The position numbers and the translations under genes were made by a program. Shown piece by piece: positions 2,497-41,000 of a stretch of 64,000 nucleotides of DNA (the first letter of the stretch is position 1; the number at the start of each line of letters is the position of its first letter). The DNA lies in contig CAKJXZ020000021.1 in the NCBI GenBank assembly GCA_918234285.1, forward strand, positions 1 through 64,000. Reading direction: 5' to 3'. Source of the DNA: Pseudomonadota bacterium. GTDB taxonomy: Bacteria; Pseudomonadota; Alphaproteobacteria; RF32; CAG-239. Below the pieces are notes generated by a model. The model had not been told where the DNA came from. It saw nothing but the letters and a program-made list of their open reading frames with translations, and ran no database searches.

Positions 2497-2562
2497 AGTC
2501 GGCTCCCTATGAAAGACTGCGAGCGAAAGGAATTAAGTCTCGCAGCCTTTCTTGCTAAAATG

Positions 2563-17007: not shown

Positions 17008-19103
17008 TATTCTTCAACCTCCTGTTTAATATACGTTACTTCAAACTGTTTGCATGGACGATATTTTTGCAGGCGTGTTGTAAAGGCAAAGAAGTCTTTA
17101 CGTTCGCAGTTTTGGTAGATTTCCAAACCTCTATCCAAAGATATCTTCCAACCGGTATCCGTTACAATGCTGCGAGCATGAATTGTGGAATCAAACTTAT
17201 ATGAAAACTTAATGCCCAGGGCATAACAAGATGACTCTATCTGCTTAAAATTGTTCTCTTGCATTTCTATAGTGTTTTCATCAGTAGTCGTTATCAATTC
17301 CACATAAACTTCATCTGCTACGGCCTTATTTTGTTCAATAAGTTCCAAAAACTCCATCAAATTCAATGTTTGGAATACATTCCGAATATATGGGTCTGTT
17401 ATTGTTATATGTTTTGCCCCCTTAATATACGGAGCAAACAGTTTTTCGTAGGTAACACCAAGTTGTCCTTCAGCAAAAGTCAGATGTTGTTCCTTCAATT
17501 CTTCTTTCTTTTCAGCCGGCTGTTGCAAAAGTTCTTTAATATCGTTATCAATGTTGCTTGTTGTTTCAACTGTATCATTATCTGTACTTTCTTCCACTTC
17601 AGGTTTATCAAATTCTGCGGTTGTTACCGTACCGTGATACATATCTTTATATTGAATTTCCTCTAATGTGGTAACTTTTACTTTTTCTCCGCCGCTTTTG
17701 ATATAAGAGAAATCAGTTGCAGGGAATGTGCTATCAATACGCAAAAGTTGGTCTTTAACACGCTTTCTTCCTTCCATAGCAAACTTTAACAACTCTTCTT
17801 TTTCTTCATATGTGGCTACTTTATTCGGATAAATTATCTTCATTAGTCCGGAGAATGTCTTGTTAATGCCATCTCTATCACGTGTTGAGATATCTGATGA
17901 CAATTCCATAGTTTCTTTATATTCATTGGAATAGTCATAATTACGTAGATATTTCAGAACTTCGGCATAATAATCTACTACAAAGCCATAACCTGTTGTA
18001 AATAATTCGTTCCGAATAACATCAATTTCCCAGCCAGGAATATAAAAATGTATTCTATCCAAAAATGCCGAATCCAAATACTTGTCTGGTAATTCTTCAA
18101 ATAAGTTGGAATGTGTCAGCATAAATGGAACGTTATGTTTTGTATTGCCGATAAAGGTCATAGAGGCTTCTGCGCCTAATGTTTCTACACCGCGAGAGAA
18201 GGATTTGTTGGCCATATAACCTTTCATAATGTCAACCAAAGCCTTATCTACCTTCTTTTGTTGTCCTGCAAATTCATCAAAGGCAACATTATCCCAATAA
18301 CCTACAAGCCCGATACTATGCTTTTTAGAGTTATTAACGAATAATTTTGCTACTGTTACCTCTCCACCTGAAATCAATGTTCCGTGAGGCGAAAACTCGG
18401 TATAGATATGTGATTTACCTGTTCCTTTCGGCCCTAATTCAATCAAATTATAGTTTCGCTCACAGAATGGTATAAGACGCACTAATTGCAATAATTTGTT
18501 TCGGCGGCTTAACATCTCCGGATTAAATCCGATACTTTGCAAAATCAAATCAATCCATTCATCTGTCGTGAATTTGCTACGTTTTTCTTTGAAATCGTCA
18601 AAATTAAACTGGGATAATTGGATGGGCTTAATTGATGACAATACCCACGGACATTCATTTGTATCTTCACTGAAATGATATTCCAAATCGGCCAAACACC
18701 AAACACCGGAAACCAATAAGCGTGGATGTTTTTTACTTACGGTTTCCGCATCTACCAAGACTCTACTGATGCCCAGATTTGAAAATGTCAGACGGTAACA
18801 GTCATTTTTCTCATCCAATTCCGCAAAAATCTTATCAATAACCTTATAGCGGCCTTTTTCCTTGATATATGACTTAATGAGTTCGGCTTCGTTTCTATGA
18901 ACATAATGTTTGGCTAAAATCTCTTTTACCGATTCAATTCCTGCATTGATTGTCGCTTCATCATTGGTAGCGCAATACTGTCCGAGCAAGTATTCTAATA
19001 CGTATGATGGCACAATAGCGTTGCCTTTGACCTCTTTAACCAAATCTTTTCTAACAACGCATCCAGGAAATACATCGTTTATTTTTGTATCCAAACTATT
19101 CAT
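17007..19103 (-). CDS. brxL: BREX BrxL, ATPase form with a C-terminal MIT_C/PLD-like domain
   Basis: VPSYVLEYLLGQYC, ELGPKGTGKSH, FDEF and DSAFLDRIHFYIPGW; C-terminal DPYIR...IHARSIVTDTGWKISLDRGL. Confidence 0.9.
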   Translation of the reverse strand: MNSLDTKINDVFPGCVVRKDLVKEVKGNAIVPSYVLEYLLGQYCATNDEATINAGIESVKEILAKHYVHRNEAELIKSYIKEKGRYKVIDKIFAELDEKNDCYRLTFSNLGISRVLVDAETVSKKHPRLLVSGVWCLADLEYHFSEDTNECPWVLSSIKPIQLSQFNFDDFKEKRSKFTTDEWIDLILQSIGFNPEMLSRRNKLLQLVRLIPFCERNYNLIELGPKGTGKSHIYTEFSPHGTLISGGEVTVAKLFVNNSKKHSIGLVGYWDNVAFDEFAGQQKKVDKALVDIMKGYMANKSFSRGVETLGAEASMTFIGNTKHNVPFMLTHSNLFEELPDKYLDSAFLDRIHFYIPGWEIDVIRNELFTTGYGFVVDYYAEVLKYLRNYDYSNEYKETMELSSDISTRDRDGINKTFSGLMKIIYPNKVATYEEKEELLKFAMEGRKRVKDQLLRIDSTFPATDFSYIKSGGEKVKVTTLEEIQYKDMYHGTVTTAEFDKPEVEESTDNDTVETTSNIDNDIKELLQQPAEKKEELKEQHLTFAEGQLGVTYEKLFAPYIKGAKHITITDPYIRNVFQTLNLMEFLELIEQNKAVADEVYVELITTTDENTIEMQENNFKQIESSCYALGIKFSYKFDSTIHARSIVTDTGWKISLDRGLEIYQNCERKDFFAFTTRLQKYRPCKQFEVTYIKQEVEE

Positions 19104-19118
19104 ATCTCAAAACCTTTC

Positions 19119-21593
19119 CTAAAAATCCATAGTAAATGTTTTTCTAACTGTATAAACCAAAGACTTATATTCTTTGGCATAGGTTGTATCTTCTTCCGGT
19201 TCGCTTAACTTCAAATAAACCGTTTGATTATTTTCATTATCAACATTTTTGTTCAGAAGTAACGTTACCTGCTGTTCTCTATCTCTTGTTTCTGTACTTA
19301 CGCTGTCAAATATAAGTTCTTTTTGCTCTGAAATCAGTTCTCCGGCTTTGTTATACAGCCCGATAAGCAAAACTCTCTTTTGCACCTTATCGTTCACAAT
19401 GTCTTTCTGATACAATGTTACGACCAACTGATTGGAAGAAATAATGTCTGTAGAGCGCATCATTTCTACTTCCACCTTACTGATATCGCTTTGGCGTTTT
19501 TTATTGATAGTAACAATAGGAACGATAATTTCTTGCAAACTTGCACCACCGTGAACAAATTTGCGCGCAGCACCTTGAAGTCTTAAACGGTTGATTGATT
19601 TTGGGAATTGAAATTCCAAATCACCGCGTAAACCAAGATTTTGTGCACTAAACTTCATAAATGAATTATCTTCCTTCAGGTTTCTGCCGACAACAAATCT
19701 TCTGTCTTTCTTAATAACGTCGCCAGACGGTTCTACGCCCAAATACTCATCTTCATCCAAATCTTTATTTTGGTAGATAAAGCCGTGGTCAGAAGTAATT
19801 ATAATGTTATAAATGTCAGCACTTGCCAATCTTTTCGTTATTTTTATTAACTCTTCAATCGTATCATCTGCGGCCTCAAATGCCTGTTCTTCCGAACTTA
19901 AACTATGGCCGATTTCATCTATTTTGTTATGAAATACATATACTATGCTGATGTTCTTAAAGACTTCACGCAGTCTCTCAATACCGCTATTTAAGATATC
20001 TGTATCCTTTAATGCCAGGGCTCCGGTTGCTTTTTGCTGCAAAATCTTATTTCTGTTATCCAAACCGGATGTAGATACGTCATCTGCATTCACAGTCAAA
20101 TCTTTTTCTATGATTTCAAGTGCATTATGAGGCAATAAAGATGCCATACCGAGTTGCGTATAACTCGGAAGTCCCGTAATTGCTTTATTTAACTTGGCAT
20201 CAAAACGGTCTATCTGACGAATACGTGCTGCCAATTCTTCACCTATTTCGTAGCGAAGTGCATCCGAAACAATGATACATTGCTTGGTTTTGCTGCTTTC
20301 TACATATTTGTGATAAAAATCGCGCTGACGGTCTATGCAGTCAAATTCCCATACTGTTTTCTTATCTATTTGCTGCTGCCAACTGTCATTCATATTCAGC
20401 AAATACTTGTTAGAATACAGATTCTCTATGTTTTCAACCAACTTTTCAAAACCGCTGACTTGTCCGGAAACTTTCAAATGATATATAAACTTCCGGTAAT
20501 ATTGGTCAATCTTATACCAAGTGTTTGTATAGTTTTCTATACCGGTGCTGATAGAGTTGACTACAAAATGCTCTTCTTTCTCTACCATTTCCACAAATGC
20601 GGCAGCATACCAAAGTGCCTGATACAAATTCTCATACTTTTTATACCATTTCATCGTGCGGCGTTGAGTTATGATATCAAACATATCTTTCGGATTGATG
20701 GTTCTTTTGCATAAATTTTCTATCAATGCGGCAATGATACGTTTATCAATGGCCTCAAAATAATCTACTGCCACCAAAGACTTGTAGTCTTTCTGATATA
20801 CTTTGTCTTCAATCTTTAAGATATCCGCCACTTCGTTGGAAATCTTTTCAAAATCAGCAGCATAGCGAACATCATTTTTCCATTGGTTTAAAAAGATTTT
20901 AGCCCCTGTGCCAGAATTTGCAGCACCATCTATATCGTTTGCAAAACTGCGTTCAAAGGTATTGATGATAAAATCTTTCACGTTCGGCGCAGATGAACTG
21001 TAACCATAGGATTCCTGCATTCTGTCATATAAGAAACCATCAAGTTTGCTTTTGCTAATAGCGTTCATCATTTCATTTTTGCCGATTGCATATTCATGCA
21101 GCAGGCTTTCTACCACCGAATTGATGTCACCTTCGGCTTTGCTTATTACAAAAAGCATTTTCATTCTGATTTGCTTATGTGTCTCGCTTTTACCGATAAG
21201 TGCTTTAAGTTTTTCTTTGCGTTCTTTACTCTTAAAGAAAAACTCATGTTCTTTGGTGATTTCGGAAAACTCCGAGCCCAAACCCAGTTCGGAAAGGGTT
21301 AAAGCCCATTGTTCGGCGTGAAATTCAGCATTTGCGAGCAAAACATCTAATAGCCAGTTTTGCGCATCCTCCGGCTTTTCCGCAGGTTTATAGAGCAAAA
21401 ACTTTTGGTTTGGTTCTTCTTTCAAAATCTGGTATTTCAGCGCAAACTCATTCTCGCCAATCGTCAACTTTTTCACGCCATCTAATTCCAAATTGGCAAA
21501 ATCTTCCGTGAATTGCTTGTCTTTATCATACCAAAACACAATCCGAGAGTTTTCAAACTTATTCAAAAGAGTTCTTTTGATTTGCTCACACAT
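19119..21593 (-). CDS. pglZ: BREX-1 PglZ phosphatase
   Basis: RIVFWYD, IVSDALRYE, LPSYTQLGMASLLP, TSDHGF and FVHGGASLQE. Confidence 0.95.
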   Translation of the reverse strand: MCEQIKRTLLNKFENSRIVFWYDKDKQFTEDFANLELDGVKKLTIGENEFALKYQILKEEPNQKFLLYKPAEKPEDAQNWLLDVLLANAEFHAEQWALTLSELGLGSEFSEITKEHEFFFKSKERKEKLKALIGKSETHKQIRMKMLFVISKAEGDINSVVESLLHEYAIGKNEMMNAISKSKLDGFLYDRMQESYGYSSSAPNVKDFIINTFERSFANDIDGAANSGTGAKIFLNQWKNDVRYAADFEKISNEVADILKIEDKVYQKDYKSLVAVDYFEAIDKRIIAALIENLCKRTINPKDMFDIITQRRTMKWYKKYENLYQALWYAAAFVEMVEKEEHFVVNSISTGIENYTNTWYKIDQYYRKFIYHLKVSGQVSGFEKLVENIENLYSNKYLLNMNDSWQQQIDKKTVWEFDCIDRQRDFYHKYVESSKTKQCIIVSDALRYEIGEELAARIRQIDRFDAKLNKAITGLPSYTQLGMASLLPHNALEIIEKDLTVNADDVSTSGLDNRNKILQQKATGALALKDTDILNSGIERLREVFKNISIVYVFHNKIDEIGHSLSSEEQAFEAADDTIEELIKITKRLASADIYNIIITSDHGFIYQNKDLDEDEYLGVEPSGDVIKKDRRFVVGRNLKEDNSFMKFSAQNLGLRGDLEFQFPKSINRLRLQGAARKFVHGGASLQEIIVPIVTINKKRQSDISKVEVEMMRSTDIISSNQLVVTLYQKDIVNDKVQKRVLLIGLYNKAGELISEQKELIFDSVSTETRDREQQVTLLLNKNVDNENNQTVYLKLSEPEEDTTYAKEYKSLVYTVRKTFTMDF

Positions 21594-21594
21594 C

Positions 21595-24500
21595 TTATGC
21601 TTTCTCCTTTAATCCTATATTCCGGAGTGCTTTACCGAACTTCAAATAGTTCACTTTTACGCCATCATCCAAATCAATTTCTTTTCTTTCGGTTGCCAAC
21701 GGGAATAAAATATTGCGCTCATAATCATCGGCTTCGTTCAAATCTGCCTGTAATGCAATTTTATCTATTGTAGCATTGAAATCATTGTTTTCCAGTGATG
21801 TTAGCGCATCTATGTTGCCCTGAAGTTTGTTCTTATATTCACGCAAATATTCGTTTAAGACCAGATTTACGGTATCTTTGTTGTAGCGGTGCAAATAGAT
21901 AAGTGCATTAAAAGCGTTCTTTTCTGAAGAGAACATCCAGTAAATCGGACGTTTCTGATACATTTGTACGTGGTCTTTATAAAAGTCCTTAATAAAGTAT
22001 TCACGCAGCACTTGTTCCGGTGATTTGTTGGCTTTTGTGTTTAATACGCTGGCGATATAGGCCATATTCTCGGCGTAATATTTTTCTCCAAAGGCAACTT
22101 TGATAAATTTATTGAAACGTTCTACAATATCATCAGTGAAATAATGTTCTGAAAGCACCGGAATAATGCCATCTTCATCGGCTTCAAAGGTTTGATAGTT
22201 ATTAGCATCAAAGTCCCCACCGGCATAAATGAGACCTTTAGCATCCAAACTATAACGTCCGAACATACAACCGACAGCGTATGATATCAATGATTTGACT
22301 TCGCGTTCTTCGTCGGCCTTGGCAACCGTAATATCTTTATCGTCTACTTCCGGCGTCATTTCATCTTGAAGGCCATAGATTTCTATGAATAAGCGATTTA
22401 GTTCTTCCTCATTGGCTTTCAGTTGATTAAACTGCTGTTCCTTGTAGGCTTTCCACTTTGCGAAACATTCGGAAATCTTATCACCTTCTGTGATTGGTTC
22501 AATTTTGCTGATGTTTTCATAATCAACCAATCCTTTATTGCGATTAGAAAAACGAATAAGCGGATGCTGTTCAAAATCCCACGAAGTTTCAAAACTATCC
22601 CAATCATCTTTAGATATAGCAATGTTTTGTTCTACAAGTGTGTCAATAGTATGCTTTATACCATTGGATGGTTTAATGAAAGGAATGTTACATATATCCG
22701 ATGTGAGAAGGTTTATCGTAGGATTATACATAGGATATAAAAATTGAGATATGTTAGAATTTAATAATGCTAAAATTACATATAAATCGTTAGCATTTTG
22801 GGGATAAACCGTTGGTGTAGCAGTTCCACAAACGGATTTATCTATGACGCGAAAACTTTTTTGTTGATTACTTCCAATCTGTGACCATCCTATACCTCTG
22901 CAGAAATAAAAATTTTCATCTCCTCGTCTTACTGATTTGTTTGTATATTGTGGAGACCATAGTTTATTTAATTTGATTACATACCAGTAATTTCCGTAAT
23001 ATTTTCTTTGTTCCCCACCTTTTTGAAAAATGTGATATTCTGAATACTTCTTATGTTCTTTTTCTATGAAAGATATTTTTTCAAAATTTACTTCTTGCCA
23101 AAACCTTATAAAGAAGTCATCTTCCCCAGTAACAACACCTGACTTTGGTATAACATCATTTTTTAATAATGGATTTTCAAATACTTTCTTCCAATTATTC
23201 CCAAACCAATATGCTATTGGAGTTCCAGGAACCAAATTAAAATCTAATTTATTCGTTTCATAATAAAAACCACAATCTTTATTCAAAACTGCTTCTCTGG
23301 TTTTAATCGGTTGATTTTTAGCCCCTGGAAAATCAGATAACCGAATGTAACATCCAGCCATATCTGCTATATTTCGTTTAGCAAGCGTAAATGTGCAAAT
23401 TGGCACGGTTGCGCCATCAAATCCAGAATATTCAAGTTGAACTAATGAGGTTATATCCGTATCATTGATAATTTTGCTTCTTAAATTTTCATAACTTGAA
23501 ATAAACATCCAAACAAATGGTGTCATAAAACCGATGTAGCCATTATTTACGGTTTTTGATTGACAGTAAACAATAAATGCTGAAAACAAATCATATTTTG
23601 CATCTGAATATTCATTTTGAATAAACTCCAAAAGTGTTTTTTCCATATATGTTCCTCCAATATATGGAGGATTGGTTATTACGCATTCATAGTTTTGTTG
23701 CATTATTTTAAGTTGTTTAATTAAAAATGGTAATCTGCCTTTGATAGCAGGCGTATTCATTGTCGTTTGTCTTTGGTTTTTGAAGTAATTTAAGCGTTCT
23801 TCCCAAAAGGCAATATCTATTTCATCTAATTTGCATAATGAACCGATTATGCGAGCATTATTAAAATTCTCACATAGCGTATAGATTTGCTGTTTGGCGT
23901 ATTCTCTATCACTTACTCCTTGCAATAAATCTTCTAATACATCTGCTGTAATCCATTTGGTATCTTTTACCGAGCAAATATTAACATTGTTCAGTTTGTT
24001 AAAGATGTTACGGTCATATTGACGGGCTTTCATCATAACTGCAAACTGCGCTAATTGTGCGGCACGGTCACAAATATCCAAACCATAAAGATTGTGAGTT
24101 AAAATCATCTCCGGTATTTCATTATCCGGATAGCCTTGCTCTTTATACACTTCATACAATAATTCAAAAGCATATACGAGAATGTGTCCGGAACCGCACG
24201 CAGGGTCAAAAACCTTTATTTCTTGCGGCTTTATTCCTTTGAATATGTGGTTTTCAAGTTCTTTTTTGGCTTCAGCACTAACATTTCTCGGCTCTAAATA
24301 AAACTCCATTTTATCTTTTAATGCGGATGTCGGATTTGCTTCCATCCATAATTTACCTAAAGAATTCTGCGTCATATAGCGCACAATCCAATCAGGCGTA
24401 AATAATTGCGTTGCATAAGGTATTTCAAAGCCTTTATAGCGTTTCTTTGCCTTAATAACCCTGTCTTTTTCCTCTTGGTTGAAGTATTGATACAACCAGC

Positions 24501-25092
24501 CGATAACTTCCACATCTTGACAAGTTTCGGCATCAAGAGTTTCTACTGCTTGTGTCAGCACCGAACTGTTGGAAAGTAAGTCATCCGGCATCAAAAGTTC
24601 AGTATAGTCCTTAATCCGCTCAAACATAAACGGCATCAATTTATTATAGGCATTACAATATGCCACTAAAAGCAGTTTATATACTTCTTCTTGCGGTTTA
24701 GGGCTACTGATAGCACCGTTCAACAGAGCGGAAATGCGTTGTTCTACATCTGCCGGCACAACCTGTTTATCCACATATCCGGCTTTGGCTTCTGAAAGCA
24801 CTTCCGGTTGGGTTTGTCCCTCTGCCGGCGAAACTACTCCAATTTTGGTATAATGGTTCACATCCATAAAACGTAGAGCAATAAAGCGGTTAAACCATGT
24901 ATAGGCTACTTTTTCAATAGTTTGTTCTTTGCCGATTTCTGCTATCAAACCTTCCAAGGCTCTTATCGCTTGCGGATTATTACGACGTTCAAAACTGTTG
25001 GCTTCTAATACCAAATCTAATTTGGCGGCCACAATGCCCATCAGCGATTTACGCGCTTCAATAGCAAATTTCTTTAATTTTGAAGTATCCAT
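21595..25092 (-). CDS. pglX: BREX-1 adenine methyltransferase PglX
   Basis: AYTWFNRFIALRFM, TQLFTPDWIV, DPACGSGH, NPPY and IDLDDGVKVNY. Confidence 0.95.
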   Translation of the reverse strand: MDTSKLKKFAIEARKSLMGIVAAKLDLVLEANSFERRNNPQAIRALEGLIAEIGKEQTIEKVAYTWFNRFIALRFMDVNHYTKIGVVSPAEGQTQPEVLSEAKAGYVDKQVVPADVEQRISALLNGAISSPKPQEEVYKLLLVAYCNAYNKLMPFMFERIKDYTELLMPDDLLSNSSVLTQAVETLDAETCQDVEVIGWLYQYFNQEEKDRVIKAKKRYKGFEIPYATQLFTPDWIVRYMTQNSLGKLWMEANPTSALKDKMEFYLEPRNVSAEAKKELENHIFKGIKPQEIKVFDPACGSGHILVYAFELLYEVYKEQGYPDNEIPEMILTHNLYGLDICDRAAQLAQFAVMMKARQYDRNIFNKLNNVNICSVKDTKWITADVLEDLLQGVSDREYAKQQIYTLCENFNNARIIGSLCKLDEIDIAFWEERLNYFKNQRQTTMNTPAIKGRLPFLIKQLKIMQQNYECVITNPPYIGGTYMEKTLLEFIQNEYSDAKYDLFSAFIVYCQSKTVNNGYIGFMTPFVWMFISSYENLRSKIINDTDITSLVQLEYSGFDGATVPICTFTLAKRNIADMAGCYIRLSDFPGAKNQPIKTREAVLNKDCGFYYETNKLDFNLVPGTPIAYWFGNNWKKVFENPLLKNDVIPKSGVVTGEDDFFIRFWQEVNFEKISFIEKEHKKYSEYHIFQKGGEQRKYYGNYWYVIKLNKLWSPQYTNKSVRRGDENFYFCRGIGWSQIGSNQQKSFRVIDKSVCGTATPTVYPQNANDLYVILALLNSNISQFLYPMYNPTINLLTSDICNIPFIKPSNGIKHTIDTLVEQNIAISKDDWDSFETSWDFEQHPLIRFSNRNKGLVDYENISKIEPITEGDKISECFAKWKAYKEQQFNQLKANEEELNRLFIEIYGLQDEMTPEVDDKDITVAKADEEREVKSLISYAVGCMFGRYSLDAKGLIYAGGDFDANNYQTFEADEDGIIPVLSEHYFTDDIVERFNKFIKVAFGEKYYAENMAYIASVLNTKANKSPEQVLREYFIKDFYKDHVQMYQKRPIYWMFSSEKNAFNALIYLHRYNKDTVNLVLNEYLREYKNKLQGNIDALTSLENNDFNATIDKIALQADLNEADDYERNILFPLATERKEIDLDDGVKVNYLKFGKALRNIGLKEKA

Positions 25093-25101
25093 AGTCTGTC
25101 C

Positions 25102-28100
25102 TTAAATCTTAATCTTTTTGCCGTCTTTGATTTCACCAAGCATTGCTTGTTTCAAATTGGCCAAATATTCATCAACATCTTGAGCATTTGCCAAAAGTGT
25201 TTTGCTGCTCTTTACGGCAATGCTTCCGGCAGGAATGATGATTTCCTGCGGTGTATCCGGCGTTTGCGGTTTGACTGCTGCTGTAATGCGACTAATAATG
25301 TTCAGATGCGTATTGTTCTTGAAGTTATCTGTTGCATAACATAACAGTGGAATAATCTTCTGTTGCTTGACGTTTCCGGCAAAATCATCATATTCCTTAC
25401 TGAATCTTTGTTGCGCAGGCGCATCCAATTTGCTCCATTCTTCCATATTCTGTGCTTCTGTCCGCAATTTTGCCACTTCTTCAAGGGCTGCATTACGTTC
25501 CTGCTCCAAAGATGCCGCAATTTGCTTCTGTAAATTTGCAATATTCTCGCGCAAGTCTTGAATTGTCGTGCCTTTATAGCAATTCAAATCATTTAAAATG
25601 TTGCTGATTTGCGTGGCATCGGCACCGATATGTTCCAGATTGGTGTGTTCATCCGACAAAAACTGTCTGGCTTCATCATAATAACCACGCATTGCACCAT
25701 TCATAAAGTTTGTTATCGGGACAATCAGATTATCATTATCGTTCAACAAACCCTCGCTAATGCCTGTAAACTCGTTGAAATACCAGTTGTATGGTTTATC
25801 TACACATTTGGCCAGTTTGTCTTTGATTTGGCTCAAAACCGCCACAAACGGATAATTGTTCTTTTGATACAAAAGTTCAGTTACTCTTGCTAATTTGTCC
25901 TTAATTTTATCATTAACCTTAAGCGCAATCGTTTTAGCATCATTATCGGCAATCGGTTCATTGCAGAATGTGTCATAAAACTCTTTCAACTGCCGAATTT
26001 GGCTCGGTGAGAAACTTGTTGTCGGTTGCAAAATTAAATTATCTTGCTTGGAAGTATTCTTAATGGCCTTAATAACATCATTATCTTCCAAAATGTTGGA
26101 ATTTTCTTTGATTTCAATCTTACGACGAACGTATAACTTGGCAATATGGCACAAAACTGCGGCATAAGACCAACCATACGGAATTTTCTGGAATGTATCC
26201 AAAACGCTCTTAACTGTTGCTTTGTATGTACCGCTGCGGACGATGTGATTATATACCTCTTGCTCTGCTTCGGTTAAATTAGCCGGCATTAAAACATTAC
26301 CGTCGCGGATAATGTTATCAATTTCTTGCTCTTTATAAGTTACACCTGCCAGCATTTTGATATTGGTGTATGTTTTATCTACCAATTCCATAAATGCTTT
26401 AACTATACATCCGGCAGCATCGGAACCGCTCATTTCTACTTCTGAACCATTGACGTAGAAACGCGACTTACCGACCAAAACGGCAACGCGCTCCTGCAAA
26501 CGGTTCTTGCGCTCGTTGTTTTGAATTTGCTTTTCTTGAATAATGCGCCGTGCATCATCGGAAATACCGGCTCCCATCGTTTGATTGATATACTTTAAGG
26601 TCTTCTTATAAAGGCCTAAATCATCAATTAAACGCTTATCTTCCGGCAACAAAATAAACAATTCTGTTGTTTTTTCTATGGATTTCATCGCCACATTGCC
26701 GGCGTTTATTTCATCGTCTAACGGGCTGATAACATTTATAGACAGTTCATATTCGCGAGAATATGCCTTACCATCTAATTTGCGCGTAAAGTTATAATCT
26801 GTTCCATTGGTGTGGTGTATTTTGTTTTGACGCAAAATACTATCATAGATTAAAGTTTGCAATTCATCCGGAATGTCTGTTACCGCAATATCGGTTTTCT
26901 TGATTTCTTCTTCAATGTCTTTTTCTTTATCGGTTAAGTATTCATAGACATCATTGGTGCGCTGAATATAAGTCTGGTCTTCCAAAATATTCAGGGCTTC
27001 TTCTATTTGTTTATTGTATTCAACTTGATTTTCATTGAAGTTGCTGTGCATCAAAACTGCGATATTTCTTTGTGTAGCCTTGAAGGATTTAATGTATTTC
27101 ACAAGGAACAAGGCTTTTAAGATTTTAACGGCCAACTTGTTTTCCAAGTTTCTTTCGGCTATGGCAATAGAAGATTGGATGCTGGCAAGTGAACTCCTAA
27201 TTCCTTCATACATCATATCAAATGTAGCAATTTCGCCAACTTGCTTGTTTTCGCTTACATTTATTGCAACTTGCTGAAATACGCTCAAAATAGAACGTGC
27301 GCCGACAGAGGTATATCCGCCTTGAAATGCACCGTGACGTGACAATTCCTGCATTGCATTTTGAAATAATGTGAACTGATACGGAATAAATGGGTAACAA
27401 TCAATGAAATGTTCTTCATCTCTAAAGTTTTTAAGAACCTGACCTTCAGTAAAATCAAATAATGTCTTAAAATTGTTGACTTCATTATGATATAAGTCAC
27501 TCAATACTTTCTTCGCATCATCTTGCTTTTCAAGCAAACGCTTTTGAATAACTTCTTCAACATCTTGGCTATCCAAGTGCAATCTTGTTCTGAAACGGCC
27601 TTGAATCTTTGAAAAGTCATCACGGGATAAGGTTGTTCCCATATCTTCAAGGAAAGTTGCCACACTGGCTTGTGAAGTAACAATAACTGCTGCACGACCT
27701 TTACATAATGTGCCTAATTTCTCGGTTATGGCTTGTAATTCAAGCATATATTGCACATTGTTGCCAATGTATTGGCCAACTTCATCTGCCAAAAAGTTAA
27801 TTCTGAAATTAGAACCTTGTTTATCTATATAGGCCTTAACTAATTCCGCAAAACTATCAATGGAAGTTGCATTAACTTGTTTTGTTTTGCTTAAAACATC
27901 TTGATATTCGGCATTTTTTCCGTGAACTTTATTATAGGCCTTATCTATATCAGGTCTGTATCTTTGGCGAACACGGCCATCTTCCCAATCAATTTTCGCT
28001 ATATTCTTAAATTCGGCCTTAAATGTATCAAACAATCCTTCTTCGTCTAATTCTCTTTCAAATTGTGCAATATCACGCGATTTACCATAATATCCGCAGG

Positions 28101-28554
28101 CTTCGTTAAATACATTCATAAAGATTTCCAGAACGGTATCTTTTTTATTGTCTATATTGGCCTTCTTGGCAATATCAAACAAAATGCTTTTCGCTGGTGT
28201 CTTCAGATTTTTAAGACGACCTATAAGAAAAGCATTCTCCGGAGAACATTTTTCTATAAAAGCATCAACAACCGTGCGACCTCCAAGGTCTTTATTTTCT
28301 AACAACAAAGCCACCATTTTCAAAAGGTGTGATTTACCGGAACCAAAGAAACCGGAAATCCATACGCCATTTCCGTCAGAATATTTTTCAGAATATGCTT
28401 CCAGCAATTCTTCTAATTTCTTCTCAATGCTTTGAGTTAAAACATATTCATCAACTTCCTGATTGAGTTTTGCTAACTCAATATCATCTGCCTTTACAAC
28501 GCCTTCAATATGGCGATTTATGTTTTTTCTGAAAAGAGATGTTAAAATATTCAT
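25102..28554 (-). CDS. brxC: BREX P-loop ATPase BrxC
   Basis: GVWISGFFGSGKSHLLK, DEVGQY, FSKIQGRF and YPFIPYQF. Confidence 0.95.
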   Translation of the reverse strand: MNILTSLFRKNINRHIEGVVKADDIELAKLNQEVDEYVLTQSIEKKLEELLEAYSEKYSDGNGVWISGFFGSGKSHLLKMVALLLENKDLGGRTVVDAFIEKCSPENAFLIGRLKNLKTPAKSILFDIAKKANIDNKKDTVLEIFMNVFNEACGYYGKSRDIAQFERELDEEGLFDTFKAEFKNIAKIDWEDGRVRQRYRPDIDKAYNKVHGKNAEYQDVLSKTKQVNATSIDSFAELVKAYIDKQGSNFRINFLADEVGQYIGNNVQYMLELQAITEKLGTLCKGRAAVIVTSQASVATFLEDMGTTLSRDDFSKIQGRFRTRLHLDSQDVEEVIQKRLLEKQDDAKKVLSDLYHNEVNNFKTLFDFTEGQVLKNFRDEEHFIDCYPFIPYQFTLFQNAMQELSRHGAFQGGYTSVGARSILSVFQQVAINVSENKQVGEIATFDMMYEGIRSSLASIQSSIAIAERNLENKLAVKILKALFLVKYIKSFKATQRNIAVLMHSNFNENQVEYNKQIEEALNILEDQTYIQRTNDVYEYLTDKEKDIEEEIKKTDIAVTDIPDELQTLIYDSILRQNKIHHTNGTDYNFTRKLDGKAYSREYELSINVISPLDDEINAGNVAMKSIEKTTELFILLPEDKRLIDDLGLYKKTLKYINQTMGAGISDDARRIIQEKQIQNNERKNRLQERVAVLVGKSRFYVNGSEVEMSGSDAAGCIVKAFMELVDKTYTNIKMLAGVTYKEQEIDNIIRDGNVLMPANLTEAEQEVYNHIVRSGTYKATVKSVLDTFQKIPYGWSYAAVLCHIAKLYVRRKIEIKENSNILEDNDVIKAIKNTSKQDNLILQPTTSFSPSQIRQLKEFYDTFCNEPIADNDAKTIALKVNDKIKDKLARVTELLYQKNNYPFVAVLSQIKDKLAKCVDKPYNWYFNEFTGISEGLLNDNDNLIVPITNFMNGAMRGYYDEARQFLSDEHTNLEHIGADATQISNILNDLNCYKGTTIQDLRENIANLQKQIAASLEQERNAALEEVAKLRTEAQNMEEWSKLDAPAQQRFSKEYDDFAGNVKQQKIIPLLCYATDNFKNNTHLNIISRITAAVKPQTPDTPQEIIIPAGSIAVKSSKTLLANAQDVDEYLANLKQAMLGEIKDGKKIKI

Positions 28555-28556
28555 CG

Positions 28557-29150
28557 TTATAATCCTCTTATTTGAAAAATGTTGGCTGCTCGGTAATCGT
28601 TTCCTTCATCTATGCGCCCGAACAAATTAAATGCGGCGTATGGTGAACCCTTTGATACACTTACCCCAGGGAAAAATACGATTACCGGTTTTTGGATGTA
28701 TGTGTGGAGATTGTTCAAAATTGTATGTGTGCGTAAGAAAGGAAAGATGTTGCCACATCCATTTAAAAACAAAACATCATAATTTCCTTCATTTTGCGCC
28801 ATTTTATCGGCAATAGCCGGAATAACCTTATCTTCTATCCCTAATATTCCTTTTAGTTCTTCCAGTAATTCTTCTTTATTTCTGTCTGGCGACATTACCC
28901 ATTCCCAATCGCCTTGGTCTTTTTGTAAAATTTCTATAATCAAGTCATATAAATCCACGGAAAGAACCTTAATTCCCATATTTCCAAGAGTTTTGATAAG
29001 ATTATTTTCCATTCTCAAAAACTCATTTTCTTCACTGATATCATAGTCTGCAATAAAGATAGGAAGGTCATTACACAAAACTTTACCCGATAAAAAATCA
29101 GGATTTGATATGATTTTTTTAAGATGATTATATTTCTCTTCAATACCCAT
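28557..29150 (-). CDS. brxB: BREX BrxB (DUF1788)
   Basis: FPFLRTHTILNNL...FFPG...YRA; position in the operon. Confidence 0.9.
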   Translation of the reverse strand: MGIEEKYNHLKKIISNPDFLSGKVLCNDLPIFIADYDISEENEFLRMENNLIKTLGNMGIKVLSVDLYDLIIEILQKDQGDWEWVMSPDRNKEELLEELKGILGIEDKVIPAIADKMAQNEGNYDVLFLNGCGNIFPFLRTHTILNNLHTYIQKPVIVFFPGVSVSKGSPYAAFNLFGRIDEGNDYRAANIFQIRGL

Positions 29151-29158
29151 AATTTCTC

Positions 29159-29746
29159 CTAATTTGTAAATATCGCAAGATATTGCGGTGCAAGGTTATT
29201 GATGATTTGTAGGACTCTTTGTGTCGGAATTACGGCCTGAATGAAGTTTTGATTGTTTAGCATACCGACTTCCCGTAACATTTTGAAAAGAACCTGTTTT
29301 AACTTGTATCGGCTTCCGTCCGTTATTTTTTCCAATGAAGGATGTTCAAGCATCTTTTTGTTGTAAAATGCGTCAAAATCATAGTTTTCCAGTTCAAACT
29401 GGCCGATAAAATATTTCTCTTTGATGACTTCTCTGACAAAATCAAATATAAACTTATGCTTCTGACATATTGCAAACCATAAGATTTGTTGCGTTTCGTT
29501 TGGAAAGCCGGAAACTATAAGTTGTAGGGCGTCTTCATTCAGATATGAAAATCTGGCCTTTAGTTCCTGAATAATCCGCTTTGTGGCAACCATTGTTCTA
29601 TATTGAAACATATTATCATTTTGGATATTTTGAGATGCAATTTTCCAATCTTTTGTTTGAAAATACTCATTCGCAAGTATTCTGGACTCATTTTCTAAAA
29701 GCCCTCCAGATGTAAAAGACATATTATAATCGGTCTTTACTTGCAT
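29159..29746 (-). CDS. brxA: BREX BrxA (DUF1819)
   Basis: YNMSFTSGGLL...KLKQVLFKMLREVG; first gene of the operon. Confidence 0.9.
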   Translation of the reverse strand: MQVKTDYNMSFTSGGLLENESRILANEYFQTKDWKIASQNIQNDNMFQYRTMVATKRIIQELKARFSYLNEDALQLIVSGFPNETQQILWFAICQKHKFIFDFVREVIKEKYFIGQFELENYDFDAFYNKKMLEHPSLEKITDGSRYKLKQVLFKMLREVGMLNNQNFIQAVIPTQRVLQIINNLAPQYLAIFTN

Positions 29747-29765
29747 AAATTACCTCAAAGCGTGC

Positions 29766-29925
29766 TAAATCACCATTTAATTGTATCACTTTTTGCATCA
29801 TAAACCCAAAATGCTGAATTGCAACCAAAATCTTTCTGTAATACAACAAAATAAAGTAATTCTGCCACTTTTTGACATATCTACTGGAAATATCTAAAAA
29901 AATGGGTGGGCTAAATGGTGATTTA
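29766..29925. promoter_or_regulatory. Segment bounded by a 14-bp inverted repeat with divergent promoter-like elements; candidate invertible promoter
   Basis: TAAATCACCATTTA (29766-29779) and TAAATGGTGATTTA (29912-29925). Minus strand: TTGCAA-N16-TATGAT and TGaTACAAT. Plus strand: TTGACA-N17-TAAAAA. Confidence 0.6.
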
Positions 29926-29992
29926 ATTGCACTACTCTTTAATCTGATATTTTTTATTCAATCTGATAATAAATAACCAAAAAGGATTGAAT

Positions 29993-30592
29993 ATGATATA
30001 TGGATATGTTCGTGTGAGCACACAGGCTCAAACTGTTGAAAATCAAAAATTTGTGATAGAAAACTATGCGTCAGCCAACGGATTAAAGATTGATAAATGG
30101 GTAGAAGAAACGATTTCTTCCCGTGTAGAACTAAAAAATCGTAAATTAGGTAAACTTATTAAGAAATTAAAAGCGCAAGATATCTTAATTACTACCGAAC
30201 TTTCAAGGGTCGGACGTAATATGTTAGAAGTTATGGGGATTCTTCAAAATTGCTTGGAAAAGGATTGTCAGGTTTGGTGCCTGAAGGAAAAGTATAAACT
30301 CGGTGCAGACATCCAATCAAAAGTGTTGGCGTTTGCTTTTTCGCTCGCAAGTGAGATAGAAAGGCAGTTAATCAGCCAGAGAACAAAGGAAAGTCTTGCT
30401 CGTATTAAGGCTGATGGCAAACATTTAGGTCGTCCGTTTGGTCGCAAAAGTGCATTCCACGACCTGAAAAAGAATAAGGATAAAATACTTTTGCTGGCCG
30501 AGCAGAATGTTCCAAAGGCTCAAATTGCACGAATGTTTAGAGTTGATAGAAGCACAATCAGACGTTTTATACAGCAAAATGCTGCTGCATAA
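29993..30592 (+). CDS. Serine recombinase, Mpi-like DNA invertase family
   Basis: YGYVRVST...ELSRVGRN...DIQSKVLAFAFSLASEIERQLISQRTKE...LGRP; C-terminal HTH. Confidence 0.9.
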   Translation: MIYGYVRVSTQAQTVENQKFVIENYASANGLKIDKWVEETISSRVELKNRKLGKLIKKLKAQDILITTELSRVGRNMLEVMGILQNCLEKDCQVWCLKEKYKLGADIQSKVLAFAFSLASEIERQLISQRTKESLARIKADGKHLGRPFGRKSAFHDLKKNKDKILLLAEQNVPKAQIARMFRVDRSTIRRFIQQNAAA

Positions 30593-30595
30593 TAA

Positions 30596-31099
30596 TTAGT
30601 CTTGTTTTTCCGCCAGTTCAATCACTTTAACGCCTTTACCTTTGGCGGCTTTACAGAACTCATAGGCTTTGCCTTCACGTTTGTTATAGGCTATTATAAA
30701 GTTTGTATTCTCTATGATATAGCGGTTCCGATATACGATACACAGCCTTTTGTAGCCAAGTTCACATTTTGGCGGTAAAATAAAGTCATCAAAACCACGG
30801 CGTATAGTCCAATTTTCCCGATAAATGCCACCCATTTCGTGCAGGTCTGTCATCTGCGAAATTACCAAATAAATGCGAATTTGCGGATATTCCTTCTGAA
30901 CATCTAAAACAACATCGTAAGCATCAATTTCATAGCCGCCTTTCTCGCCGACCAGAAAAGTATCAACATCTTCATTTTCTATCAAGTTGATTACTTCTTC
31001 CCTTATGCGTGCTTTAAGGTTAGGCGGCGTGCGATGCCCCAAGTTAATATCCAGAAATTTATCGTAGTTATTGCCTAAAAACGCACAGGTCTTACCCAT
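30596..31099 (-). CDS. SLOG superfamily (YspA/DUF1273-like) protein
   Basis: KTCAFLG...GHR...FLVGEKGGYE...RNRYIIENTNFIIAY...GVKVIEL. Confidence 0.7.
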   Translation of the reverse strand: MGKTCAFLGNNYDKFLDINLGHRTPPNLKARIREEVINLIENEDVDTFLVGEKGGYEIDAYDVVLDVQKEYPQIRIYLVISQMTDLHEMGGIYRENWTIRRGFDDFILPPKCELGYKRLCIVYRNRYIIENTNFIIAYNKREGKAYEFCKAAKGKGVKVIELAEKQD

Positions 31100-31381
31100 C
31101 TTCAACTTCCTACAAATTATTTTGGAATCATCTGAACACAAATGAACGATTGTGTTCATTTGGCTTTGGCACCGATGAAGTCCGATTATTTTACGTCTGT
31201 AAACCCGTTGAAACTCCTTATGTTTCTTATGTTACATCAATAATATAACCATAAATCGGTGCAAAACAATTCCGGTGAAAATACGCAAAAAAGTGATTGA
31301 TTTTATCGTTGGTTAAAAAAGCACAGTTTTTTGAAGGTAAATCTTTGATTTCTCCTGATAAATATTCAAAAAGGAGAAAAT

Positions 31382-31981
31382 ATGATTATCGCTTATATTC
31401 GCTGCAGCACCCAAAAACAGCAAACTTCGCACCAAAGGCACGAAATTCAAGAATACACCGATAAAAACGGGCTTGTGATTGACCGTTGGGTGGAGGAAAC
31501 CATATCGTCCCGAAAGTCGCTCAAAAAGCGTAAACTCGGGGCGTTGCTTGAGGAACTGGATGAAAACTGTGTACTGATTGCCACCGAGATTTCACGGCTT
31601 GGGCGCTCGTTGTTGGAGGTTATGGGGATTTTGGAGACTTGCTTATCCAAGAATTGCCGAGTGATTACGATTAAAGAAAACTACCACCTCGGCAATGATA
31701 TTCAATCGCAGGTGTTGGCATTTGCTTTCGGCTTGTCGGCGCAGATTGAGCGCAATTTGATTTCACAGCGCACAAAATCTTCTTTAGATAATCGGAGGGC
31801 TGCTGGTGTCCGTCTCGGTCGTCCGATAGGTGCTGAGGCGAAAAAGCTCAAGCTGGCCAAGAATGCCAAGAAGATTGAGGAGTTGCTGGCCAAGGGGCTT
31901 AAAAAGGCACAAATTGCACGCATTCTAGGTGTGCAGCGTATGACACTCAATCGTTTTCTAAAACGCTCTGGTTTGGGGTAA
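31382..31981 (+). CDS. Second Mpi-like serine recombinase
   Basis: IAYIRCST...EISRLGRS...DIQSQVLAFAFGLSAQIERNLISQRTK...LGRP. Confidence 0.9.
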   Translation: MIIAYIRCSTQKQQTSHQRHEIQEYTDKNGLVIDRWVEETISSRKSLKKRKLGALLEELDENCVLIATEISRLGRSLLEVMGILETCLSKNCRVITIKENYHLGNDIQSQVLAFAFGLSAQIERNLISQRTKSSLDNRRAAGVRLGRPIGAEAKKLKLAKNAKKIEELLAKGLKKAQIARILGVQRMTLNRFLKRSGLG

Positions 31982-35870: not shown

Positions 35871-37100
35871 TTATGAAATTTGTTTTATTCTGTTTTCTAT
35901 CAATGCCTTTATTTGAGCAACAATCTCTGTTTTGATACCGTTTCCGGCAAATTGCTTATCAAGTTCCGGTAATGCCGCTGTTATTTTGGTGCTCATTTCA
36001 TCAATAATCTTTTCCACCATTGTCGGCTTAATTTCCAAATCTTTTGCCATGGCAATAAAATGACTGCGATGAATTAAATTCGGATTGTATTCACCTCCGA
36101 CAGACATTGCCAAATTCGGCGAAAGCACTGTATAAACCTGCGTTGATACCAAATCATACAACGGCGAAAGTTCATATTTGCCGCCACGATGCAGAAAAGA
36201 AAAATTCTTGCCGTGAGCATCGGAATTACCGATAATGAAGTTAAACACTATGGTTTTCAAAAAATTCATTAAAGCATCGGCCTTGCGATTAAAGTCAGCC
36301 GCAGCAATAAACTTATAGCATTGCTTAATGCTCGGCCCGCCTTCCTTTTGGTATTTTTTATCCGGCATACACAACGCTTGGCAAAAATCCTCTTGATGAA
36401 CACGTCTTAAGCCCGAGGCCATTGTGCTATCTGTTTCACGGTCAAAGCGTTTCACCACATATCCGAATTCTCCGGCAAAATTCTTTATAAATGAGTGAGC
36501 TGTCGGCAATCCGATAAGTTTTGCAAGTGACATACAAAAATGCTCATTGTAAATAATGTCCTCAAAATACGGATTTTGCGGCTTGATAATATGCGTTGAA
36601 ATGTAAGAACCTTGCGGAAGGTAATAGTTATCCGAGTTTTCCGGCAGAATAGCCAAAGCAATTTTTTGCTGAGCACCGGCCAGAGATAAACGGATTTCCT
36701 CTCCGACCAACAAAGGTATCTGTGCCTGATTTTTCAACAGTTCCGCTATTTTTTCTTCACTAATCGGCGTTAATACCGACGGCTCGTCTTCTCTTTTTGC
36801 GCCTTGAGGATATAGTTCAACCGCACCGGCACACTCGCCGCCGATTTCCTTTAAGAGCGCAAACGGATTGTTTGAAGACACCTGCTTATAGCGAGCAACC
36901 GCTTCACGAATACCTTCTTCAGGCAACAAATTGTTGAAGAAACTGCGTGTAAGCTTATCGTTAAAAGCTTCTTTTTGTAACGGCAAATTGACCGATAAAG
37001 GTGTATCGGCATCCTCATTATACTTGAAACTCAAGCGAGAATTCTTTTCCGTCAGTGTTCCAATCTTTTTACCATAGAAATATACATCCAATGCCGGCAT
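35871..37100 (-). CDS. hipA: HipA family toxin kinase
   Basis: FFNNLLPE, LSLAGAQQK, HIIKP, RFDR, HQEDFCQAL, IGNSDAHGKNFS and LSPLYD. Confidence 0.95.
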   Translation of the reverse strand: MPALDVYFYGKKIGTLTEKNSRLSFKYNEDADTPLSVNLPLQKEAFNDKLTRSFFNNLLPEEGIREAVARYKQVSSNNPFALLKEIGGECAGAVELYPQGAKREDEPSVLTPISEEKIAELLKNQAQIPLLVGEEIRLSLAGAQQKIALAILPENSDNYYLPQGSYISTHIIKPQNPYFEDIIYNEHFCMSLAKLIGLPTAHSFIKNFAGEFGYVVKRFDRETDSTMASGLRRVHQEDFCQALCMPDKKYQKEGGPSIKQCYKFIAAADFNRKADALMNFLKTIVFNFIIGNSDAHGKNFSFLHRGGKYELSPLYDLVSTQVYTVLSPNLAMSVGGEYNPNLIHRSHFIAMAKDLEIKPTMVEKIIDEMSTKITAALPELDKQFAGNGIKTEIVAQIKALIENRIKQIS

Positions 37101-38037: not shown

Positions 38038-41000
38038 TCAGTTAGATGCCCATTGGTGGAATAAGCCCTTATTCATATAGCGCTCGGTAATCTTTGTTGC
38101 CACGGACCTCGGTAAGTCTAGGAACATAACCTGTGCAACACCCTGTTCCGCTTTAATGACTTTACATTTAGCCGTAACATTAACGCCCTCAAATGCTATC
38201 GAAAGTTCAACACTATCCCCGACTTTCCAATGATTTTCGTTAACAATGGTAGCACCCTCCCTATGCAATCTTAAGATTTTTACGCTCGATTTCAGGTCTT
38301 TATCGCCCGTAACATCATAACCGTAACCCATATTGTTGTTTAAGGCATAATCAACTTCCGGTTCGTTAGAGTTCGCCGGAATCAAATCACTTAAGTCATT
38401 TTCATCCATAAATTCTCTGCCGAATATAAGACCGTTATTGGTTTCGTTGCCCAGGCTGTAGGTGGTCAAATCCCCGTCTCTGAGTATAATCTGGCCGGCC
38501 ATAATCAAGTTACCGAACACGTCTTGTTGATTTAGGCTCAGATTGCCTTTATCTATATGAATTTGAGAACCTTTTGCCAACAATAAATCGCCTTCACGGG
38601 CTGTCATTGAAACATCTCCGTCAACGCTGTGTATTTTGCCGAAAAGAGATATTCCGTCTGAGCCGTATAGATTGGTGTTACCTTTTTTATTGGTGATATT
38701 GCCGTAGATATTCAGCGCTCCGTTTTGAGTGTTGGCAATATCAATCAGTCCGCCGGCCGTTATTGCATCGTATGTTTGATGTTTGGCTATATCAATACCG
38801 TTCTTTGCTTTCACGGTCAATTCACCGTCTTCTGACGGAGTACCGGTCTTAGCGTCAATACCATTGACTATCTTACCGTTTAGGGCAACTTTGCCTTCTG
38901 ATATAATGTCGGTCTTGGCCTTAATAATCTTCTGGGTGGTTAAATTTGCCTCTGAAGTTGCTCCGCCTGCAACGAAATATACGCCGTCAATTGACGTATT
39001 GACAATATCACCAACAATCAAAGGTTTATCGGTTTTGTTATTTATTTCTATAGCCTGAGGACCGGTAGAAACAGTCATTACGCCTTTAACCGTGCCTTTG
39101 TTTGCCACGATTTTGATACCGTTGTCGGCCTTAAGTTCCGGTAAGTTGTATACATATATCTGACCGTTTTTATAAATGGCCTTGATATTTCCTTTTATCA
39201 CGCCGTCGTTTAAGTTAAAACTTAAGCGGTTTCCGCCCAAGTCGAGGAGATTTTTTTCACCGGTTGTCGGATCAACAATCAGATTTTCTTCTTTCAGCAT
39301 ATTATCCGTGATTTTAATGCCTCGCAAAGAATATCCTGTCTGAATATTTGAACCCGATTTAATATCAACTTCATCAGCAGTTATGTTCAGACCGTCGGCG
39401 GCGAAAATTTTACTGCCCGCATTCAGAGTGAATTTTGCATTATTTTCATCATTATGTGTTTCAATATCAATCTGTCCGTTTGTTGCAAACAAATTCAAAT
39501 TGCCCGTATCTATATTGCTGCTTTGAATAGCAATATTACCGCTTTCGTTAAGGATATTCAGCACTCCGGTATTTATGTCTCCGTTAATCGTAATATCCGA
39601 TGCAACGGTCGAATTCGGAATATCAAGCGTATCGGCAAGCGGATGATTATTGTCGTAATAGTTGTTTATGGTTGTTCCGACAAATTTCGTATTGCTTACG
39701 GTAAAGTGAACACCTGTTGTCGGGAGACTGTCAAATGAAGGGCGTTCATTATTCTGCTTCCATATACTTGAACTGCCATAGAAATATTCATTTGCCTTCT
39801 GCCCGCTTATTGCCTGCGGTTTATTAGCAAATTCGGTTTGCTCCTTATCATTAATAATCAAACTGCTGTTTGCGGTTTCCGTGTTGATATTTATGTCGTT
39901 AAATACCAGTGAACGAGTAGAATAATTATCTATTTGCAAACCGGATTTGGCTATATCAAATACCCCGTTACCCGTGATATTTGCATTGGTTAACCCGTGA
40001 ACATTTATCTCGGCACCGTTAGGATTGATACGAATATCATTGAAGACCAGCGAATAATCTTCACCGGAATAACTGTATTCATCAGCCGGTGTTTCCCATA
40101 TGGCATTATATTCGGCCGTAAGTTTTGCTCTTTCGTCTCGCAAATCCTCCAACAGGGCTGTACCATTGGCTTTTATGTATTGAATTGATTTAATTTGGTT
40201 TGCAATATCTTCTATTTTGCTGTTCAAATCAAGCATATTCTTGCAAGATTGAGCCGCACCTTCTCCGGTTGGGTTTAGGGCGGCAAGGTAGGTTATACCG
40301 TCTTTACCGATATATTTTGCAAAGCCGTGTGGCGTAATCGACAGTCTGTTCTTAACATCGCTGTATCCCTTCACAATATTGTTTTTCTGGGCATTTGAGA
40401 AGCCATAATCAGATGCGTTCAAAAACTCCGCCATTGTAAGATTTGGATTATTGTTAAGCGCAGTGGTATAATCCTGCATCAGCGTATTGTATTCAGCCTG
40501 GGTTATTTTGCTGGCATATCCCGGATCTGTATTGGTTTGTCGGACACACCCCATGTCTTTTTGCATTTTCAAATCAAAAGCACTAATTCCGGCATAAATT
40601 CCGCTGTTACCGGTTTTGGACTCAAGCAAAACCGCACCGTTTTCGATAAAAGCAGTAAGCTCATTAAGGGTTGCCTCGGCATCGGCTTTTTGCTGATTAA
40701 GCTTGGCGACCAGAGTATTATAATTTGCTATTGTATTTTCATACTCGTTAATCGTTCCGTTAACATTTTCCAATTCAATATCAATCTCAGACAGTCTTTG
40801 TTCTTTGAATTTTGCGCCGTCAACAAATTTTCCGTCGTTTAAGACATAATCGCTGTCAGAAAAACTCTTAAGCGTTGTTTTATCAATTGTTCCGTCACGA
40901 TTTATCTTCATATATTTTGTGTTGCTTAGCGCGGCGGTGATGTTGCCGTCGTTATTCAGAGAATAATTGCTTTGCAAATCATATTTTGACGATTGACCGC

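Follow-up and report, generated by a model that had tools for sequence, protein, structure and literature searches.

Does the phage-defence operon at this locus stand behind a promoter that can be turned round? The question is raised by a stretch of 64,000 nt (the window) from an uncultured gut alphaproteobacterium, positions 1 to 64,000 of contig CAKJXZ020000021.1 in assembly GCA_918234285.1. On its minus strand lies a type 1 bacteriophage exclusion (BREX) operon, and brxA, its first gene, is read away from rec1, a plus-strand gene for a serine recombinase of the Mpi family. Between the two genes, a segment of 132 bp (29780-29911) is enclosed by short inverted repeats. This segment is very likely a site-specific DNA inversion switch (inverton) that controls BREX from two outward candidate promoters. 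Both orientations exist between strains and samples, with the breakpoints in the repeats.

The repeat is a perfect 14-bp inverted repeat with the asymmetric core CACC/GGTG, present at 29766 and 29912 as an earlier note on this DNA had claimed. The left recombination site, TAAATCACCATTTA, lies at 29766-29779 and has arms TAAAT/ATTTA around CACC. Its exact reverse complement, TAAATGGTGATTTA, lies at 29912-29925 as the right site, with GT as central dinucleotide (29918-29919). There are 132 nt between the arms, and the repeat search of the window gave 100% complementarity for the two 14-mers. The 14-mers are inverted but their flanks are direct, as both sites have the form GC-[14 nt]-ATTG (GC-TAAATCACCATTTA-ATTG at 29764-29783 and GC-TAAATGGTGATTTA-ATTG at 29910-29929), and the longer stretches around them were recognized in the same search as a 31-nt direct repeat (74%). 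The exact 14-mer occurs in the window at these two places only. With up to two mismatches it was found four times, compared to a mean of 1.76 in shuffled sequences, and 13 of 100 shuffles reached four, which is not above chance. No additional copy of the 20-mer site was found in the 2.0-Mb genome with up to three mismatches allowed. The pattern TAAAT-N4-ATTTA occurs there 12 times, and complementary cores are found only in this pair, 146 bp apart.

The DNA search covered 61 genomes, namely the window's genome (G000) and 60 relatives. The locus is shared by G027, which belongs to the same genus, with collinear flanks and an unchanged gene order around the sites, and positions 29766-29925 of the window (query 167-326) matched it 100% on the opposite strand. 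The inner segment is there an exact reverse complement (132/132). According to the earlier note, a flip would turn the present sites into two longer palindromes, GCTAAAT-CACC-ATTTAGC and CAATTAAAT-GGTG-ATTTAATTG, and these are exactly the two sites of G027, GCTAAATCACCATTTAGC and CAATTAAATGGTGATTTAATTG. Read in the window orientation, the G027 site next to brxA is CTCAAAGCGTGCTAAAT-CACC-ATTTAGCCCACC, and the one next to the recombinase is ATACAATTAAAT-GGTG-ATTTAATTGCACC. From repeat edge to repeat edge, the flipped segment is identical between the two genomes at 160/160 positions. Identity is 586/588 in brxA, 592/594 in brxB, 3379/3456 in brxC, 19/19 in the 19-nt brxA leader, and 597/600 in rec1 (protein 100%). 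It is 546/564 in the SLOG-like gene and 495/595 in rec2, the second recombinase gene of the locus. The spacer at 29926-29992 is identical at 62/67 positions, which is lower than in its neighbours on either side (brxA, the segment, and rec1).

Four public metagenome runs (X1-X4) were compared over 29300-30400 as Logan contigs, which drop rare variants. The contigs from X1 and X2, runs from which this DNA may stem, agree with the window in orientation. The other two, X3 from sheep gut and X4 from bovine gut, belong to different studies and gave one contig each with the segment reversed and with joints between opposite strands at 29765/29925 and 29766/29926, 14 letters being shared. The breakpoints of G027, X3, and X4 thus all lie inside the 14-mer. 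The flanks of the X3 contig differ from the window at 0 of 369 nt on the brxA side and at 2 of 462 nt on the rec1 side, so a strain almost identical to that of the window carries the other orientation. In X4 the flipped form is on a contig of 18,927 nt. Relatives therefore do not share a single orientation, as G027 and these two contigs are flipped.

Repeats can confuse assemblers, and the contig of a related cassette (L041) ends in a hairpin-like inverted copy; both would fit a flipped orientation that is an artefact of assembly. However, the reads and the 31-letter words of the run index are both longer than the 14-bp repeat, and three assemblies, made separately, have the flipped form within long collinear flanks, one of them on the 18,927-nt contig of X4, which makes an artefact extremely improbable. 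Equally improbable is the idea of two sites that serve a resolvase as operators or res subsites, with no recombination between them. The direct repeats flanking the sites (GC...ATTG) and the resolvase fold of the enzyme would agree with it, but it is contradicted by the precise flipped form in nature with breakpoints inside the sites, and no transposase gene is among the neighbours scanned.

Comparison of the two states confines the crossover to 14 identical bp. The dyad axis of TAAATC-AC-CATTTA sits on the non-palindromic AC, and as a serine recombinase requires such a dinucleotide for a 2-bp staggered cut with defined polarity, the 2-bp crossover would be placed at the central AC of the left site (29772-29773). 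The half-sites are of two kinds. In the window cassette, kind A, (G)GCTAAAT, has the left outer and right inner positions, and kind B, CAATTAAAT, has the left inner and right outer positions. The window state thus consists of two mixed A.B sites, and the flipped state of one A.A and one B.B site. Kinds A and B are also present in L041, the nearest related cassette, with a 74% identical recombinase, and because the same kinds recur there, the asymmetry is probably not due to chance.

Two serine recombinases are coded at 29993-30592 and 31382-31981, with 53% identity between them. The first, rec1 (plus strand), encodes 199 aa from an ATG at 29993; the start in the list of open reading frames (ORFs) is a TTG at 29987. 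An N-terminal resolvase catalytic domain (PF00239) was identified at residues 4-145, and C-terminal helix-turn-helix (HTH) models matched at residues 166-197. The catalytic residues Y5, R7, S9, R72, and R75 are invariant among 17 homologues. The solved structures closest to rec1 are those of Gin invertase (E 1.3e-9) and gamma-delta resolvase, with E about 1e-9. Against NCBIfam model NF009949 (master DNA invertase Mpi family), rec1 scored 275.3 bits over residues 1-197 of 199, with a cut-off of 272. The name Mpi-like used in the earlier note is therefore right as to family, but does not extend to action on many dispersed promoters, since neither the 20-mer search nor the complementary-core search gave a second site in the 2.0-Mb genome. 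As its site is unique in the genome, rec1 is a dedicated local invertase and not the master of many loci. It is most likely the acting enzyme at this switch, judged by its adjacency to the switch and co-inheritance with it.

The second gene, rec2 (plus strand), reached 268.1 bits against the same model, just below the cut-off. It is separated from rec1 by a SLOG/YpsA-like gene at 30596-31159 on the minus strand. Upstream of rec2 there is a weak repeat only, TTTGGCACCGAT/ATCGGTGCAAAA, 12 nt long with one mismatch and a gap of about 78 nt. A switch of its own for rec2 is doubtful: this repeat is missing from a paralogous copy on contig C68 and is collinear in G027. The pair of SLOG/YpsA-like gene and rec2 is duplicated on that contig (G000:C68:17552-18142), and at locus L084 an Mpi-like gene likewise faces a SLOG gene.

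Promoter-like strings are located inside the segment where the earlier note had put them, and they form two sigma-70-like candidates standing back to back, both facing outward. The candidate facing brxA in the window state, P_B (29780-29824, minus strand), consists of TTGCAA (29824-29819), a spacing of 16 nt, TATGAT (29802-29797), a further 8 nt, and TGATACAAT. The last element is an extended -10 at 29788-29780 on the minus strand and touches the left repeat. The other, P_A (29872-29900, plus strand), is TTGACA-17-TAAAAA with a -10 that lacks the final T. It faces the recombinase in the window state and would face brxA when flipped. The fixed leader of brxA (29747-29765, minus strand) is 19 nt long and has the Shine-Dalgarno sequence GAGG (complement of 29753-29756). 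Since only these 19 nt lie between the left repeat and the brxA ATG, leaving no room for a fixed promoter, transcription of brxA is expected to start inside the segment. A promoter scan over 29650-30050 gave no candidate outside the segment.

The layout of P_B is kept in L041 as TTGACT-16-TATGAT-8-TGATAAAAT followed by a B-type half-site, with different spacer sequences, whereas the TTGACA of the window (the -35 of P_A) has no counterpart there. Because the layout of P_B is conserved in L041 and the -35 of P_A is not, P_B is taken as the main promoter. TTGACA-17-TAAAAA had been considered, by its position, as the canonical promoter of the family, and it was dropped for the same difference. A split promoter with its -35 in the segment and a fixed -10 by the gene is unsupported, as there are only 19 nt and the site before brxA and no -10-like hexamer among them.

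On the other side, a fixed spacer leads from the right site to rec1 (29926-29992, plus strand). It has the ribosome-binding site AAGGA, and AATCTGATA occurs in it twice at a distance of 19 nt (within 29938-29949 and within 29957-29968); one of these copies is kept in L041. This repeat-bearing spacer may be an accessory site. A fixed recombinase promoter with TGATAA in the spacer was discarded, as it was seen at 6 of 78 homologue loci and in 54 of 1089 control windows and is not enriched.

In the mechanism proposed, rec1 would bind the two 14-bp sites as dimers and pair them. It would then cut both sites at the central AC/GT, rotate the half-sites, and rejoin them, leaving the segment reversed. 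By this inversion the promoter reading into brxA would be exchanged with the promoter reading into rec1. In the window state the conserved P_B would face brxA; in the flipped state P_B would face rec1, and brxA would be left with the weaker-looking TTGACA-17-TAAAAA. Judged from these motifs, the window state would be BREX-high, and G027, X3, and X4 would be BREX-low with P_B reading into rec1. Switching of this kind would be expected within a clone.

Cassettes homologous to the one at brxA are common among uncultured Alphaproteobacteria of the gut. The recombinase family was found in 44 of the 50 genomes of the genus, G000 included (E ≤ 1e-20), often in multiple copies. The scan of species genomes gave 564 relatives. 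Of the best 80, most come from metagenome-assembled genomes titled as Alphaproteobacteria of gut or rumen, and some, with 53-55% identity, from Bacteroidota. At 23 of 69 homologue loci, a repeat pair with arms of 12 nt or more stands in the corresponding place; as controls, dinucleotide shuffles gave such a pair in 36 of 1380 cases, and positions elsewhere in these loci in 11 of 312. For this count, at least 320 nt upstream, at most one mismatch, at least three G/C, a right arm between -140 and -40, and 85-170 nt between the arms were demanded. Relative to the recombinase start, the pair is at -226/-81 in L012, -225/-81 in L020, -225/-78 in L027, and -214/-70 in L035. In L016 and L017 it is at -209/-64 with 14-nt arms and one mismatch, and has a perfect 11-nt core at -205/-65.

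Genes read away from these recombinases are of varied function. The Pfam scan covered 45 of 61 divergent upstream ORFs; the 16 left out were short, at an odd distance, or from later loci without a detected repeat. YadA-type adhesins (seven) are followed by glycan enzymes (three), autotransporters (two), SNF2/ResIII helicases (two), HTH-only proteins (two), and single ORFs for an opacity-like porin, a Type ISP restriction enzyme, a C5 methylase, and Cas9. Other families are represented by one ORF each (seven), and no family was recognized for 18. At L061, where the Type ISP enzyme is coded, a repeat of 10 nt was found at -212/-64. In L042 the Cas9 gene (1-2643, minus strand) is divergent and about 360 nt from an Mpi-like recombinase gene, and no repeat of at least 9 nt was found between the two. 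ORFs beside Mpi-like genes in L043 (1672-2718) and L075 (2159-2734), both on the minus strand, have the resolvase-type domain HTH_7 and no match to the resolvase catalytic domain.

Orientation also varies among the related cassettes. The inner segments of L055 and L091 agree at 76/104 positions when one is flipped and at 52/105 in the same orientation. The case of L035 and L079 is weak, with 81/136 flipped and 73/144 unflipped. The L041 contig (1-230) opens with 51 nt whose exact reverse complement stands at nt 180-230, beyond the switch. It thus starts in the flank next to the recombinase, passes through the switch, and returns into that flank. As the contig holds both junction forms, it hints that both orientations are present in that assembly.

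A second BREX locus with such a cassette was found in another genus. BrxA is present in 4 of the 283 genomes of the order, and one of these, G157, has the order brxA, TAGACGGTGATATA, segment, TATATCACCGTCTA, and a 62%-identical Mpi-like gene, which is the same layout as in the window. In G141, a recombinase is absent upstream of BREX. The G157 cassette (L122) recurs with 87% identity in L064 beside an SNF2 helicase gene, with homology starting at the distal repeat, and L130 in genome G154 is 95% identical to it up to the distal repeat. In L132 of G216 the flank matches one strand and the segment the other, so a cassette of the G157 type is flipped there. As similarity ends at the distal repeat, with BREX or an SNF2 helicase beyond it, the invertase, the spacer, and the invertible segment seem to move as a unit.

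Cargo found beside such cassettes includes adhesins and glycan genes as well as SNF2 helicases, a Type ISP restriction enzyme, and, in two cases, BREX. A wider idea is offered tentatively, and it is doubtful at present. The invertase gene, the fixed spacer, and the two-promoter segment may be a portable plug-in module for varied cargo, in which the A/B sites could make the two switching directions unequal and couple invertase expression to the state, as a self-timed form of bet-hedging for defence systems.

The inversion could be real and yet act as a rheostat, or mainly on the invertase, with BREX expressed similarly from P_B or P_A and the main effect on the level of rec1 and, through it, on the switching rate. 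Outward promoter-like elements on both strands of the segment are consistent with this, as are the candidate promoters on both strands of the G157/L064-type cassette and the position of the best-consensus promoter, which faces the recombinase in most assembled cassettes. But the incomplete -10 of P_A and its unconserved -35, set against the conserved P_B, do not suggest equal promoters, and many cassettes have one strong promoter only. A rheostat is accordingly regarded as unlikely, and control of BREX itself by the switch is preferred.

Several points weigh against such a switch. As for the promoters, the number of promoter-like matches is not above chance (1, compared to 2.2 +/- 1.5 in shuffles). 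The ON assignment could be reversed, and some promoter-like element stands before brxA in both orientations, so that the effect could be one of level and not on/off. In Bacillus cereus BREX, pglZ-brxL with its own promoter is reported in the text available for PMC9881135, and pglZ-brxL may by analogy have a promoter of their own here. As for the inversion, the differences of X4 match those of G027 where comparable, and the two may belong to one lineage. The data require one inversion event as a minimum, a recent one between the window strain and X3. Mixed orientations within one population were not seen in X1 and X2, each with one form among contigs that drop rare variants. Metagenome contigs of the Joint Genome Institute, scanned with the right-junction 21-mer, gave a single chance match (L040). 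This match was rejected as a junction, as it falls within a long reading frame resembling a TonB receptor, and the surrounding DNA shows no similarity.

One or few flips during strain divergence, with no relevant switching rate now, would explain the single orientation in each assembly or contig, and one inversion event suffices for the data. Such a historic rearrangement is nevertheless judged still less probable than the rheostat. The segment is identical at 160/160 positions between the two states while nearby rec2 has diverged (495/595), and rec1 is intact with a 100% identical protein in G027. X3 is flipped, yet has only 2 different letters in 831 nt of flanks. Moreover, the hairpin-like contig of L041 holds both junction forms, and three cassette types are polymorphic in orientation. 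A switch in use remains the preferred reading.

The operon behind the switch is a complete type 1 BREX (17007-29746, minus strand) recognized by Pfam and PADLOC, with six genes in one cluster in the order brxA (29159-29746), brxB (28557-29150), brxC (25102-28554), pglX (21595-25092), pglZ (19119-21593), and brxL (17007-19103), all on the minus strand. Pfam matches are to BrxA, BrxB, and BrxC domains, Eco57I/N6_Mtase, PglZ, and BrxL, and the PADLOC models BrxA, BrxB, BrxC, PglX, PglZ, and BrxL matched over nearly full length. The BREX island is syntenic between G000 and G027, with 94-98% identity. The exception is a stretch of pglX at 22648-24484 (minus strand), which has no match in G027 save for 285 nt at 81%. 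It looks like a replaced specificity region, and for this reason the window strain and G027 probably methylate different motifs. A few kb past the recombinases, a HipA-like kinase gene (HipA_C and Couple_hipA, 35871-37100, minus strand) and an open reading frame of 4205 aa (38038-50655, minus strand) were also annotated.

The variation known from BREX concerns pglX, which is changed or broken; here the whole operon appears to stand behind a flippable promoter. If this is true, the lineage would keep subpopulations with and without the defence, and the cost of defence and its barriers to gene uptake would be traded for protection from phages. Gut Alphaproteobacteria would then have the Mpi mechanism of Bacteroides in the form of a local, movable cassette, before defence genes and surface structures alike. 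Natural ON/OFF variants would give a handle on the cost and the protection of BREX in an uncultured gut lineage.

A full-text literature search, with most subscription papers outside its coverage, gave no report of promoter inversion before BREX. The accessible text of a genome-wide inverton survey (PMC11602134) has no mention of BREX. The nearest case for BREX is that of Lacticaseibacillus rhamnosus and Brevibacterium casei, for which gene-altering inversions of the pglX coding sequence in BREX loci are described in the available parts of Milman et al. 2023 (PMC9881135). In the same parts, Mpi-family genes are given as enriched beside inversion targets, and invertible promoters are mentioned as future work only. 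As here, these are programmed inversions at type 1 BREX with a recombinase nearby. In the form described there, however, pglX inversions recombine coding segments and change the protein, whereas here the coding sequence is intact and a 132-bp promoter segment before brxA is flipped.

The invertases Hin, Gin, and Cin (Salmonella H segment, phage Mu G segment) share the serine recombinase chemistry, and among solved structures that of Gin comes nearest. In the case of Hin, too, a promoter is flipped. In sequence these enzymes are only distantly similar to rec1; the segment here is much shorter than theirs, and the invertase gene is outside it. Escherichia coli fimS is a short invertible promoter upstream of an operon and gives heterogeneity in the population. 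In the flgB/RecV system of Clostridioides difficile, according to the source text available, an operon is likewise preceded by a short promoter or leader that can invert, and the population is heterogeneous. Both use tyrosine recombinases and serve fimbriae or flagella, whereas a serine recombinase and phage defence are concerned here.

The closest system is that of Bacteroides fragilis. Mpi (Ssr2) is, like rec1, a small serine recombinase of the NF009949 family, and the capsular-polysaccharide promoters of that species resemble the present locus in layout, with a short promoter-bearing segment that stands between short inverted repeats directly before the operon. Deletion of mpi locks these promoters, according to the text available for PMC10403206. 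In contrast to B. fragilis, the host here belongs to the uncultured Alphaproteobacteria of the gut and has Shine-Dalgarno sites and motifs of the sigma-70 type. Since its genome has no second site of this kind, the invertase is a local one, and the target is a BREX operon. The enzyme gene adjoins the switch here, and the pair seems to travel as one module. An Mpi-type switch is thus newly seen before a complete BREX operon, packaged with its own local invertase.

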